Source: a virus
Virus record (IMG/VR): IMGVR_UViG_3300048930_000687
DNA: 38,989 nt
Direction: 5' to 3' (one strand)
Below, piece after piece: positions 7,423 to 11,361 of this stretch. The position numbers were made by a program, and so were the translations under genes. Under the pieces are notes generated by a model. It was not told the origin of the DNA. It saw only the letters and a program-made list of their open reading frames with translations, and searched no databases. The first letter of the stretch is position 1, and every line of letters begins with the position of its first letter.

Positions 7423-7791
7423 GTGATGCTAACTGTTGCTAACCTCGACTGGATGGCGAAAGCGTCGACATCCAGCACCCTTCGTCCCAAGTGGGGGCGC
7501 AAGCTCGCGGCTCGACGCACCGAGCTCGGTCTCAGCCTTGGGGCGATTGAGGAAATGACCAACGGCGTTGTCTATACCCAGTTGCTGTATCGCCTCGAGA
7601 ACGGTCGCATGAACCCCAGGAACCTCAAGGCTCATCAGTTGGGGGCTCTGCTGACCGCGCTAGAGTGGACGCACGAGGACTGGGATGCGTTGCTTGGGCA
7701 GCCTTCTGGAACTACCGCTGGCGTCGGTACTCCAGTCGAGACCGCGAAGGGTCACGGCAGCTCACACCTGGTTATCCCAGGGGGGTGGTGA
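7423..7791 (+). CDS. XRE-family HTH domain protein (N-terminal part of a cI/LexA-like repressor)
   Basis: HTH-XRE-like region GRKLAARRTELGLSLGAIEEMTNG...; ORF ends TGA at 7789-7791 immediately after a G6 run; track start is GTG, ATG at 7426. Confidence 0.7.
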   Translation: MMLTVANLDWMAKASTSSTLRPKWGRKLAARRTELGLSLGAIEEMTNGVVYTQLLYRLENGRMNPRNLKAHQLGALLTALEWTHEDWDALLGQPSGTTAGVGTPVETAKGHGSSHLVIPGGW

Positions 7792-8165
7792 TGGTGCCGG
7801 TCTACGGCTCAGCAAACGGCGGCAAGCCATCCGAATACGGCATCCCAGTCGACCCCGAACTAGTCAGAGGCGACAACACCCGCGCCTACCAAGTAGACGG
7901 CGACAGCATGAACACCGGCACCGAAGAAGGCATCCGAGACGGAGACTGGGTACTCGTAGACACGAGCCTCACCAAAGGCATCCCCGGCCGAGTCTTCCTC
8001 CTCGAGATCATCGGCGACGGCATGACCGTCAAACGCCTCCGCGTATTCGACGGCGAATGGCGCTTCGCCAGCGACAACCCGGAGGTCGGCGAGAGCTGGC
8101 GTGGCGACCAAGTCCGCGTCATCGGCCAGGTGTACGGCAAAGTCAACTTCAAGGCGATCCATTGA
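7791..8165 (+). CDS. S24 (LexA/cI-like) peptidase domain protein (C-terminal part of a split repressor)
   Basis: Motifs VPVYGSANGG, DGDSM (Ser nucleophile context) and TVKRL (Lys); ATG overlaps upstream stop as TGATG; frame is open for 42 codons upstream of the ATG. Confidence 0.8.
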   Translation: MVPVYGSANGGKPSEYGIPVDPELVRGDNTRAYQVDGDSMNTGTEEGIRDGDWVLVDTSLTKGIPGRVFLLEIIGDGMTVKRLRVFDGEWRFASDNPEVGESWRGDQVRVIGQVYGKVNFKAIH

Positions 8166-8222
8166 GGCAAGCAGCAACACACTGAAAAGGGTGCACGTGA
8201 ACCAAGGATGGAGGAATCCAGA

Positions 8223-9350
8223 ATGAGTAGCCGCCCTTCTGTCCAAAAAGGGGACCCTGCCAAACTAATACCGCTGAGCGACCTCGCATTTGATCCCGAG
8301 AACCCGCGGCTGCCCAAAGAACTTGATGGATCGGACGAGGCGGCGGTGCTGGACTGGATGATAAAATACGGAGCCATCAATGAGCTGATGGCCTCGATTG
8401 GTATGCAAGGTTTTTTCACTGCGGAGGCCCTGCTCGCGGTTCCGAATCCCAGCGGCGGCTACTGGGTTGTGGAAGGCAACCGACGACTGGCGGCGGCAAA
8501 GCTACTTGTAAACCCAAACCTGGCGCGATCGCGGGCGAACTCAATAAGGGACACCGTAGCTGCGGCGGATCATGCGCCAACCAGGCTTCCGGTCATTGTC
8601 TACCCGGACCGCTCGAAGATCCTCGCTTATCTGGGGTTCCGCCACATTACAGGGGTGAAGCAGTGGGATTCTCTCGCAAAGGCTCGCTACCTTGAGCAGA
8701 TGCGAGTGCAGATGACCAACGACGGTGTTCAAGAAGCTGATATGAATCGCAACTTGGCGAAACTAATCGGAAGTCGTTCCGACTACGTCGAGAGGCTTCT
8801 ATTCGGCTTGAAGGTATACGACCGGATTGTCGAGGAAGTCCTAACTGATTCAGAAGTCAAGGTCGACGAGTCCGAGATCAACTTCTCCGTCCTCACCACC
8901 GCGCTGAACTATACGAGTATCGCCGACTTCGTGGGTTTGAATCGGGAGCAGGGTGTAGAGGGTGTCTCTCGAGAACGCCTTCGCGAACTCACTCAATGGA
9001 CGTTCGAGAAGAGCAAGGACCGACCATCTAGGGTCGGTGAGTCCCGCAACCTTGCCCTCCTCGCACAGGTCGTAGCCGAGGCAGACGCTCTCCAGGTTTT
9101 CCGAGACGGGGCGCCATTGAAGGAGGCGGCCGTTTACGCGAAAGGACCCGGCAAGTTGATGCGCGAGTCCTTGAGCGCAGCACGCAACAACCTTCGCGCG
9201 GCATTTGGTGCCGTCCTGACTGTGCCTGACCTAAACGAATCTGACCGGGCCCGAGCTGAGGAAGTAAGTACTGCAAGCAATCGACTCTTGAAGTTGATTG
9301 AGAGCGTCCTATTGGACGCGGCCAACAAGCAGGATGGGGGCCATGAGTAA
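8223..9350 (+). CDS. ParB/Srx-like N-terminal domain protein with unknown C-terminal region
   Basis: Motif VVEGNRRLAAAKLL resembles the ParB GxRRxxAA box; GGAGGA before the ATG at 8223; visibly lower G+C than surrounding genes; 8-nt overlap with next gene. Confidence 0.65.
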   Translation: MSSRPSVQKGDPAKLIPLSDLAFDPENPRLPKELDGSDEAAVLDWMIKYGAINELMASIGMQGFFTAEALLAVPNPSGGYWVVEGNRRLAAAKLLVNPNLARSRANSIRDTVAAADHAPTRLPVIVYPDRSKILAYLGFRHITGVKQWDSLAKARYLEQMRVQMTNDGVQEADMNRNLAKLIGSRSDYVERLLFGLKVYDRIVEEVLTDSEVKVDESEINFSVLTTALNYTSIADFVGLNREQGVEGVSRERLRELTQWTFEKSKDRPSRVGESRNLALLAQVVAEADALQVFRDGAPLKEAAVYAKGPGKLMRESLSAARNNLRAAFGAVLTVPDLNESDRARAEEVSTASNRLLKLIESVLLDAANKQDGGHE

Positions 9351-10371
9351 CGCCAGGCAGCTGCTTACGGCTGAACGGCGACCGACTATCCGGAAGATGG
9401 ACACGCATATGCACGCAGACTTTGCTGAAGTGCTATGCCTGGTGAACCCCGACCATGACATCTCAAGCTCGGACATACTCGACCGCTTCGCAGAGCGACG
9501 TGACCTGGGCGAGGAGTTCGAGGAGGCCGACATTGATCCGGAGTTAGCATTTGGTGTTGCCGGCAACTACGAACTGCCTACTGAGCAGCCCGTGGATGGG
9601 GAGTGCGAAGAGATCGATCAAATTAGTGAGCAACTCGTGCTCCGCCAGAGGCTCCTGGGAAGCGCCTATCCTTTTCGGCTCACGGTAACCGGATCGAGCT
9701 TCCGCCTCGCTCGCAAGCAGAAGCTCCACAAAGTGCACCTACTCTACCTGTTCCTACTGATTGCTTCGGATCTCACTCGCATCAACAACCCCACCTACTC
9801 GCGACGGTTTACTAGCGCATTTGAGCGGCTTGCAGGCGAGATGATGCGACGGCTGCTACCGTCCGGAGCCCAGGTTCACCTCTTTGGCACCGCCGCACAG
9901 AAGGGTGAATTGTTCCACGGTGGTCGCCTCGGTGATCGAATGGAACTCTTGGCTAAGCACTTACGCGGTGTCTCTAAGCTGGATAGGAACCATTCTGGGT
10001 CCTCTGGCGACGCCGGCATTGACATCGTCGGCTGGGTGCCAATGGGCGATGCGGGCGACGGCCTGCTAGTTTTGATGGGCGGTGCAACGTGCTCATACAA
10101 GAACTGGGAGAACAAGGTCTATAGTACGTCTTACGGCAGATTGAAGGAAAAGGTCCAGATTCGCGTCCCTAGCGTGAATGTGACATTCATTCCGTTTTTC
10201 ATGCGTACGTCCTCCGGCGATTGGCATAGGGCCGACGAACTCGGTGAAGCTCTCCTGGTGGACAGGCTCCGTCTCATCAAGGGTTTGGCTAAGGCCGGCG
10301 ACGTAATTGAATCCATCGGCGTAAAGCGGGAGCTCCGCGACATTCTTCAAATAAGAGAGACCACCGTCTAG
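9343..10371 (+). CDS. Hypothetical protein, candidate nuclease partner of the methyltransferase
   Basis: 342 aa; acidic N-terminal region; segment GDAGIDIVGW...GGATCSYK loosely resembles Mrr/PD-(D/E)xK-type catalytic cores; sits immediately upstream of a C5-MTase gene. Confidence 0.5.
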   Translation: MSNARQLLTAERRPTIRKMDTHMHADFAEVLCLVNPDHDISSSDILDRFAERRDLGEEFEEADIDPELAFGVAGNYELPTEQPVDGECEEIDQISEQLVLRQRLLGSAYPFRLTVTGSSFRLARKQKLHKVHLLYLFLLIASDLTRINNPTYSRRFTSAFERLAGEMMRRLLPSGAQVHLFGTAAQKGELFHGGRLGDRMELLAKHLRGVSKLDRNHSGSSGDAGIDIVGWVPMGDAGDGLLVLMGGATCSYKNWENKVYSTSYGRLKEKVQIRVPSVNVTFIPFFMRTSSGDWHRADELGEALLVDRLRLIKGLAKAGDVIESIGVKRELRDILQIRETTV

Positions 10372-10386
10372 AATAGATTGGCGTCC

Positions 10387-11361
10387 ATGACTCAGGTCCT
10401 CAAATCCGCCGTTTCACTCTTCTCGGGGTGCGGCGGGTTCGACTGGGGCGTGAAGAGCGCCGGTGTCGACATCATCTGGGCGAACGACATCGACCCTCAC
10501 GCGGCCGCTGCCTACAAAGCCCTGTTCCCCGAAACCGAGTTCCATCTCGGCGACGTAAGAGACATCGCGACCTTCCCCGAAGCTGACGTTCTCATAGGTT
10601 GCTATCCATGTACGGGCTTCAGTCTCGGCTCACGGCGACGCAACCGCGATGGCGCCGACAGGGACCTCAAAGCGAACGGCGGCAACTATCTGTACGAGGA
10701 ATTCGTCAGGGCCCTATCAGTCGTGCAGCCGGCGGTCTTCTTCATCGAGAACGTCGGTGGCATGACCACTGCGTCTGACGGTTGGTTTTTCGAGAAGCAG
10801 TTGACCGAGTTCAGGCGCCAAGGATACGTCGTCAACCACAAGGTCCTAGACGCGTCAAGTTTCGGAGCAGCACAGACCCGCAAGCGACTCTTCATCGTCG
10901 GCGTCAAGCAAGAACTCGGCACAAGCTTCACTTTCCCCGAACCCACACATGGTCAGGCTGACGACCTGAAGGCACTAGCAAGCCTCCGGTCGGCGCTAAC
11001 AAATGTGAAGACTGATGTTGACACCGAGGTCTTCAACTTCAAGTTTCACGGTCATTACCTGACGAGAAACCGGAAACGCCCATGGGAAAGCCCCAGTTAC
11101 ACCATTGTCGCTAACGCACACCACGTTCCCCTCCACCCGTCCGGTGAACCAATGCGCCGCGTTGGAGTGGATCATTGGGAGCTCCAGGGCGACGTGAACC
11201 GTCGGCTCTCATGGCGCGAATGTGCCGCAATACAAGGCCTTCCCCCACAAGTAGCGCCGTCGGGAACACTGCTCGACAAGTACAGGGTCGTAGGCAACGC
11301 AGTACCTCCCGTTTTCGGGAAGACCTTGATGGAAGAGGCCACAGCACAGTTCGGCAGTTGA
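10387..11361 (+). CDS. DNA (cytosine-5)-methyltransferase
   Basis: C5-MTase motifs: FSGCGG (I), GCYPCTGFS (IV, catalytic Cys), FFIENV (VI), QTRKRLFIVG (VIII), GNAVPP (X); start could be TTG at 10378. Confidence 0.9.
   Translation: MTQVLKSAVSLFSGCGGFDWGVKSAGVDIIWANDIDPHAAAAYKALFPETEFHLGDVRDIATFPEADVLIGCYPCTGFSLGSRRRNRDGADRDLKANGGNYLYEEFVRALSVVQPAVFFIENVGGMTTASDGWFFEKQLTEFRRQGYVVNHKVLDASSFGAAQTRKRLFIVGVKQELGTSFTFPEPTHGQADDLKALASLRSALTNVKTDVDTEVFNFKFHGHYLTRNRKRPWESPSYTIVANAHHVPLHPSGEPMRRVGVDHWELQGDVNRRLSWRECAAIQGLPPQVAPSGTLLDKYRVVGNAVPPVFGKTLMEEATAQFGS

Follow-up and report, generated by a model that had tools for sequence, protein, structure and literature searches.

The virus record IMGVR_UViG_3300048930_000687 of the IMG/VR database is a stretch of 38,989 nucleotides (nt), here called the window, that belongs to a temperate tailed phage. 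We analysed one of its genes, X, which lies between a gene for a ParB/KorB-like protein (its partner) and a gene for a C5 cytosine DNA methyltransferase (methylase). We have high confidence that the X product is a PD-(D/E)xK nuclease-fold protein of the Mrr/MspJI kind that acts with the ParB-like protein. The features of this three-gene cassette are as follows.

8208 to 9350, + strand: ParB/KorB-like partner, 380 amino acids (aa), with a ParB/Srx N-terminal domain (DPxNPR, EGNRRLAA), a helix-turn-helix (HTH) and a helical C-terminal domain
9343 to 10371, + strand: gene X, 342 aa, with a winged-helix N-terminal domain, an acidic disordered loop and an Mrr/MspJI-like PD-(D/E)xK C-terminal domain
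9343 to 9726, + strand: N-terminal domain of X, residues 1-128, winged-helix-like, with conserved HxWADYxELLCL and YRxxxFxxxYPF
9499 to 9612, + strand: acidic loop of X, residues 53-90, within the N-terminal domain; predicted local distance difference test (pLDDT) score below 50 at residues 60-83
9730 to 10302, + strand: PD-(D/E)xK nuclease-fold domain of X, residues 130-320
10003 to 10035, + strand: motif S-G-D223-A-G-I-D227-I-V-G-W, of the form GDxGxD, in which D227 corresponds to D334 of MspJI
10081 to 10089, + strand: G247-A248-T249, where the canonical (E/Q)-x-K would lie; consensus of the family, Q-C-A
10114 to 10116, + strand: K258, in the helix that comes after beta-3, a candidate for a catalytic lysine that has moved; lysine in 161 of 162 family members
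10261 to 10272, + strand: D307-R308-x-R310 motif, kept in 162 of 162 family members and in all 89 loci of the synteny sample
10387 to 11361, + strand: C5 cytosine DNA methyltransferase, with FSGCGG, PC, ENV, QTRKR and GNAVPP intact as read from the translation

Gene boundaries and homologues of X

A sequence-only reading of the window had described X as an orphan with a possible PD-(D/E)xK-like core and as the effector of a cassette. The open reading frame (ORF) given there is confirmed, with an ATG at 9343, a TAG ending at 10371 and a product of 342 aa. So are its two junctions. The start of X overlaps the end of the ParB-like gene by 8 nt (ATGAGTAA), the stop codon of the latter (9348-9350) lying inside the X start region, and X ends 15 nt ahead of the methylase ATG at 10387. 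The overlap suggests translational coupling of the pair. An alternative methylase start is the TTG at 10378. The public gene call for X from the Joint Genome Institute (JGI) is shorter, at 324 aa; we favour the start at 9343 because the alignments of X with its homologues P0002 and P0003 begin at residue 8.

The orphan label did not survive. A word-indexed search found 22 homologues of X, and an exhaustive hidden Markov model search found 2,992 family members, counted as representatives of clusters at 50% identity with E ≤ 1e-3 (2,352 at E ≤ 1e-10). They come from over ten bacterial phyla and from several groups of phages. PHROG 3984 also matches X (E 5e-47). No model in the Pfam, NCBIfam or PADLOC (2.0) libraries matches X, and scanning the 22 alignment members against profile libraries returned stray weak matches only.

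Fold and domain organization of X

An AlphaFold2 model of X built on the family alignment (pLDDT 83, predicted template-modelling score 0.85) contains the alpha-beta-beta-beta-alpha-beta core of the PD-(D/E)xK superfamily. The best structural relatives are MspJI, AspBHI and Mrr-like nucleases, and MspJI was the sole significant match when the model was searched with Foldseek (E 3.5e-4). Structure prediction with a fold search was the check proposed by the sequence-only reading, and it returned a nuclease-like fold closest to MspJI. That reading thus stands in part: its guess at the fold was right and its idea of a cassette is reasonable, unlike the orphan status.

The N-terminal part of the model resembles winged-helix proteins, not SRA domains. 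Within it, the acidic region that had been remarked on is present as a D/E-rich segment at residues 53-90, with disorder predicted at 60-83. This loop is a family trait, measuring 15-76 residues with a median of 30% D/E.

Searches with sequence and profiles were less direct. X alone, compared with the sequences of solved structures, gave chance matches to tetranectin only, and MspJI was reached only with the family profile. The Pfam profiles Mrr_cat and Mrr_cat_2 do not match X; among 22 family members there was one weak Mrr_cat_2 match (E 0.023). An hhalign comparison of the X family with one Mrr_cat protein was not significant, and its alignment ended at the GDGGID motif.

A non-canonical active site

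The X-family profile aligns with residues 321-359 of MspJI (structure 4f0p). In this alignment the family motif sGDaGlDlVaw corresponds to SGDGGVD334 of MspJI, and lfGQCAc to LGQ355AK357C, which pairs D227 of X with the catalytic D334 and the family glutamine with Q355. The segment running from SGDAGIDIVGW to LVLMGGATCS, which the sequence-only reading had singled out for its loose likeness to Mrr-type catalytic cores, is present at 10003-10095 and aligns with the MspJI catalytic region.

Residue conservation was counted in an alignment of 162 diverse family members from more than ten phyla. Seven residues (R101, Y135, G225, D227, D307, R308 and R310) are invariant in all 162, and three others are nearly so: D223 (159 D, 3 E), K258 (161 of 162) and P110 (161 of 162). 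The family does not have (D/E/Q)-x-K on beta-3, since the canonical lysine position is occupied by alanine in the family and by Thr249 in X. The conserved lysine of X is K258, not K251, which ends the CSYK of the segment quoted earlier and is not conserved, being arginine in P0003 and missing elsewhere.

K258 is likely the relocated catalytic lysine, judging from a reciprocal swap in two members. Both the X homologue of locus L051 (about 529-1569) and P0040 have the canonical Q-C-K, with leucine or glycine at position 258. This swap is the best available evidence for the assignment. P0154 has Q-C-K too, in an alignment that is gapped and ambiguous near position 258. Migration of active-site residues is documented in the PD-(D/E)xK superfamily.

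A second deviation is confined to the subclade of X. Gln247 is present in 158 of the 162 members and is replaced by glycine only in X, P0001, P0002 and P0003, which have GGATCS where the family has GQCAC. Three distinct proteins of this subclade are 47-53% identical to one another and keep intact ORFs and the three-gene context, so the loss of Gln247 is stable and does not represent decay. Asp239 is specific to the subclade and, speculatively, might compensate for the lost glutamine. On these residues, nuclease activity is less certain for X itself than for the family overall.

The ParB/KorB-like partner

The partner has both the ParB/Srx N-terminal domain fold and an arginine P-motif, and its invariant VVEGNRRLAA aligns with the ParB nucleotide-binding motif GERRxRA. 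Its predicted structure has a pLDDT of 91.8, and PHROG 3694 matches it with E 1e-91. It also matches 26 PADLOC profiles; among the 25 matches listed, 24 are PD-Lambda-5_A and one is PDC-M38A. The PD-Lambda-5_A matches (best E 7e-25) cover the N-terminal 160-245 residues only; they span the ParB N-terminal domain and, for some profiles, reach to about residue 245. ParB/Srx folds can bind CTP, ATP or GTP, and the sequence does not tell which (PMC12704722).

At residues 278-290 the C-terminal domain of the partner has an invariant S-R pair, usually in the form GESRNLxxL. The motif loosely recalls the R-N-x-x-x-H of HEPN domains without its histidine. As PD-lambda-5 has ParB fused to HEPN, the C-terminal domain of the partner might be a HEPN domain in degenerate form; neither profile searches nor fold comparison gave a HEPN match in the C-terminus.

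Pairing of X with its partner and linkage to the methylase

The synteny sample comprises 89 non-redundant loci, taken from contigs of metagenomes, phages in GenBank and a contig set with one genome per species; the 80 genome loci were found with a tighter alignment (A3) and are biased toward members with GDxGLD[ILV]V[AG]W. Enough flanking sequence was available in 86 of these loci, and in 85 of them the gene immediately upstream of X is the ParB-like one, as a rule with its stop codon overlapping the X start. X and its partner have co-evolved: pairwise similarity of X follows that of the partner with a Spearman rho of 0.83, which fits a physical complex of the two proteins.

L025 (X at 1760-2755) is the sole locus with enough upstream sequence and no ParB-like gene detected beside X. 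Its X gene has a 464-aa opposite-strand gene upstream and a C5 methylase and Vsr downstream.

The third gene is linked to the pair in most loci. Of the 89 loci, 64 have a C5 methylase at a distance of no more than 300 nt, frequently as part of one operon. With the limit set at 5 kb, a C5 methylase is present in 71 of the 82 loci whose flanks are long enough (at least 1.5 kb). Three arrangements occur, with the methylase downstream on the same strand, downstream and convergent, or upstream. All 12 testable viral contigs in IMG/VR carry the full triad. Vsr is present in 21 loci; the window has no Vsr gene. The methylase of the window matches PF00145 (E 9e-56) and TIGR00675, and its closest solved relative is M.HaeIII, with a full-length alignment (E 3e-37).

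In a few loci the surroundings include other defence genes. The cassette stands beside a second, classical restriction-modification (R-M) system in L001 (2246-4395; SacI-like nuclease and C5 methylase) and beside another such system in L003 (1397-4890; NaeI-like nuclease, HNH, C5 methylase and Vsr). In L005 an AIPR abortive-infection gene lies downstream, and an insertion sequence separates the methylase from the pair.

Genomic setting and distribution

In the window the cassette lies between a CI-like S24 repressor and an integrase. The other recognized genes include primase/helicase, Dda-like helicase, tape-measure, major head and large terminase. The GC content of the cassette region (8001-11000) is 0.57-0.58, compared with 0.62-0.70 in most of the remaining window, which suggests that the cassette was gained horizontally as an accessory module.

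The CI-like repressor next to the cassette is encoded by two genes, an HTH gene at 7423-7791 and an S24 peptidase gene from about 7788 to 8165, with a run of six G lying just upstream. We considered a frameshifted single repressor and rejected it, as the two genes are joined by a TGATG overlap and are also separate in the JGI calls (121 and 124 aa). The split may reflect either a repressor that truly has two parts or a frameshift that happened long ago.

The triad also occurs in a variable hotspot of the P2-like coliphage Wphi, as gp98, gp96 and Mth, and in Pseudomonas phage D14A, Yersinia phage HQ103 and E. coli phages 12474II-V. It is present in 140 of 5,426 complete E. coli genomes, E. coli W included, where its genes are annotated as a ParB N-terminal domain protein, a hypothetical protein and a DNA cytosine methyltransferase. 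The two-protein module is found in defence islands as well.

In our literature search, no description or test of the three-gene cassette came up. The combination "DNA_methylase + hypothetical + ParBc" recurs among the P2 hotspot loci in the supplement of Rousset et al. 2022 (PMC9122126). ParB, methyltransferase and methylase are missing from the main text of that paper, and ParB from its supplementary list of cloned systems. The same table also has a parallel cassette, "DUF262 + DNA_methylase + HEPN" (PMC9122126). Together these suggest a recurring theme of a ParB-fold protein and a methylase with an exchangeable effector, either HEPN or PD-(D/E)xK.

A proposed restriction-modification-like mechanism

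We propose that the cassette is a restriction-modification-like defence system in which the methylase marks self DNA and a ParB-like switch licenses X to cut DNA that is unmarked, a reading to which we assign a probability of roughly 0.55. X would be the nuclease-fold subunit of a two-protein module, with the ParB/KorB-like protein as obligate partner and the C5 methylase usually joined to them. The methylase would mark the resident DNA. The ParB-like protein could bind DNA by its HTH, with the nucleoside triphosphate (NTP)-binding ParB/Srx domain serving as the switch, and might then recruit or license X. Finally, the Mrr/MspJI-like domain of X, with D223, D227 and the relocated K258, would cut unmarked incoming DNA. 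The logic would be that of restriction-modification, except that a nucleotide switch of the ParB type replaces the helicase motor. What the data show are the folds, the correspondence of motifs, the close pairing and co-evolution of X with the ParB-like protein, and the linkage to the methylase; nuclease activity, gating by NTP, a physical complex, discrimination by methylation and a role against phages are inferred. Such a cassette most likely guards the host against other phages.

The main doubts about this proposal concern pairs that have no methylase, the lack of a visible specificity domain, and the non-canonical active site, the last more so in the subclade of X. Eleven of 82 pairs (about 13%) have no C5 methylase within 5 kb, an uncommon situation for a restriction enzyme directed against unmethylated DNA, and at least one clade of such pairs persists (L055, L061, L064, L080 and L084). 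Where a methylase is present, its similarity barely follows that of X (rho 0.09). Six methylase clusters are used with X, the largest holding 42 of 54, so that the methylase appears exchangeable. Neither X nor its partner has an obvious hypervariable specificity domain, leaving the reading of a target unexplained. The canonical lysine appears to be missing across the whole X family. X in addition has no conserved glutamine at the metal-ligand position, and this copy may be weakened or use another residue. The absence of any Pfam, NCBIfam or PADLOC model covering X also belongs on this side.

The pairs without a methylase all keep the catalytic residues of X, and those of the persisting clade may work with other partners. 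No other methylase was found among the scanned neighbours of the 11 pairs, a result that covers the neighbourhood only, so that one may lie elsewhere in the genome. The neighbours of these pairs are housekeeping or unrelated genes, among them genes for histidine biosynthesis, MetH, an aminotransferase, a STAND NTPase, a HerA-like ATPase, Mrr and SMC-like ATPases. At L061 the gene for a 1,290-aa HerA/DUF87-type ATPase overlaps the start of the ParB-like gene. An Mrr_cat gene and a gene of no recognized type lie just upstream at L084, and SMC-like ATPases flank both L064 and L084.

A palindromic tetranucleotide analysis of the window, for over- or under-representation, gave nothing that indicates a target site. 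Since the methylases are exchangeable and no variable specificity domain is seen, what the pair reads might be whether 5-methylcytosine (5mC) is present, or how dense it is, instead of one fixed sequence. More tentatively, and with a probability we would call rather low, the ParB-like protein and X may represent a new class of restriction enzyme. In such an enzyme a nucleotide-gated clamp of the ParB/KorB type, and not a helicase or simple dimer, would load on DNA, scan it by sliding and deliver an Mrr-like nuclease to DNA that lacks 5mC.

Alternative explanations

The pair could instead be a modification-dependent (Type IV-like) nuclease, the winged-helix domain of X reading modified foreign DNA and the methylase serving a separate purpose, for example shielding phage DNA from host restriction with a mark that the pair does not attack. 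MspJI and AspBHI, the closest structural relatives, are modification-dependent. Mrr itself combines a winged-helix N-terminal domain with an Mrr-like C-terminal domain. Two members of the X family weakly match the PADLOC "methyl-directed REase" model, and both the 11 pairs without a methylase and the free exchange of methylases relative to X agree with this explanation, as does the ability of ParB-fold domains to detect modified DNA in GmrSD and SspE (PMC12065111). However, a C5 methylase close to X in so many loci, and in every testable viral contig, is not expected if its function is unrelated, and a nuclease directed against 5mC would act against its own cell if encoded next to a methylase that produces 5mC. 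The likeness to MspJI is also limited to the catalytic domain, the SRA-like reader being missing. We regard a Type IV-like pair as unlikely.

Even less probable, in our judgement, is that X is catalytically dead and acts only in DNA binding or regulation, controlling methylase or prophage transcription together with its KorB-like partner, by analogy with KorA and KorB or with the C-proteins of R-M systems. The invariance of D227 and near-invariance of D223 and K258 across 162 members argue against this, as does the exchange between K258 and the canonical lysine, which points to selection for a catalytic lysine. Nor would a regulator be expected so consistently at defence hotspots. The cassette might also be an addiction or abortive-infection module, the pair becoming toxic to cell DNA when methylation lapses or a phage interferes, and thereby stabilizing the prophage. 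Its location on mobile elements and the lack of an evident sequence-specificity domain agree with this, as does the description of PD-lambda-5 as a compacted "RM+Abi" system (PMC9519451). On the other hand, chromosomal pairs without a methylase, lying beside housekeeping genes, fit poorly with a toxin that the methylase alone would neutralize, and the data do not separate such a module from ordinary R-M behaviour, which is likewise addictive. We consider it the most improbable of these explanations and retain restriction-modification-like defence as the preferred reading.

Relation to known systems

PD-lambda-5 is the closest validated system to the cassette. It was found in a prophage of E. 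coli ECOR7, is described as "ParB/HEPN, methyltransferase", gives broad anti-phage protection and was labelled a compacted prophage "RM+Abi" system (Vassallo et al. 2022; PMC9519451). Like the cassette, it is prophage-borne and combines a ParB-like N-terminal domain with a DNA methylase, and the partner is homologous to PD-Lambda-5_A. In PD-lambda-5, however, an RNase-type HEPN domain is fused to the ParB-like domain and the system has two genes, whereas the effector of the cassette is a separate PD-(D/E)xK protein. X itself matches none of the PD-Lambda-5 profiles. By this comparison the cassette appears to be a split, nuclease-swapped relative of PD-lambda-5.

With MspJI, AspBHI and Mrr, X shares the catalytic fold, the GDxGxD motif and the domain order, with a DNA-binding-type domain at the N-terminus and the nuclease at the C-terminus. 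It differs from these enzymes in the place of the lysine, which appears to have moved to the next helix in X, and from MspJI in having a winged helix with an acidic loop where that enzyme has an SRA-like reader. MspJI and Mrr enzymes work without a partner methylase. X has the ParB-like protein as an obligate partner. In most loci it also has an adjacent methylase and so does not stand alone as a Type IV enzyme does, although a minority without a linked methylase exists.

A coupling of ParB/Srx-fold nucleotide-binding domains to a DNA nuclease is known in phage defence from GmrSD, SspE and BrxU (PMC12065111, PMC12839542); in GmrSD and SspE, NTPase domains of the ParB fold are able both to sense DNA and to control a nuclease (PMC12065111). 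These are single polypeptides that join DUF262 to a DUF1524 HNH domain, have a DGQHR-type motif and target modified DNA. The cassette differs in using two proteins, a PD-(D/E)xK nuclease, the GxRR motif of ParB proper with an HTH, and a linked methylase.

The partner resembles the ParB, KorB and PadC clamps in its N-terminal domain fold, its arginine P-motif (GNRR compared with GERR) and its HTH domain. Unlike them, it has asparagine in place of the catalytic glutamate of GERR and a different C-terminal domain, and it is paired with a nuclease-fold protein, whereas those clamps are used for partition or repression. No ParA gene was found among the listed or Pfam-scanned neighbours.

The cassette also resembles Type II R-M systems, in which an intact C5 methylase stands beside a PD-(D/E)xK protein, often with Vsr and on mobile elements. 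It departs from them in having two conserved restriction-side proteins, one of them ParB-like, in the minority of pairs that have no methylase, and in the lack of a variable specificity domain.

Implications

If the cassette does defend cells, the X family would represent a large and overlooked group of about 3,000 clusters at 50% identity, and a second, nuclease-swapped branch of the poorly understood PD-lambda-5 type. The ParB nucleotide-switch fold, for which functions other than chromosome segregation are currently being charted, would also be tied to the restriction of foreign DNA. With a copy present as gp98-gp96-Mth in both coliphage Wphi and E. coli W, the idea is testable in a standard laboratory host.

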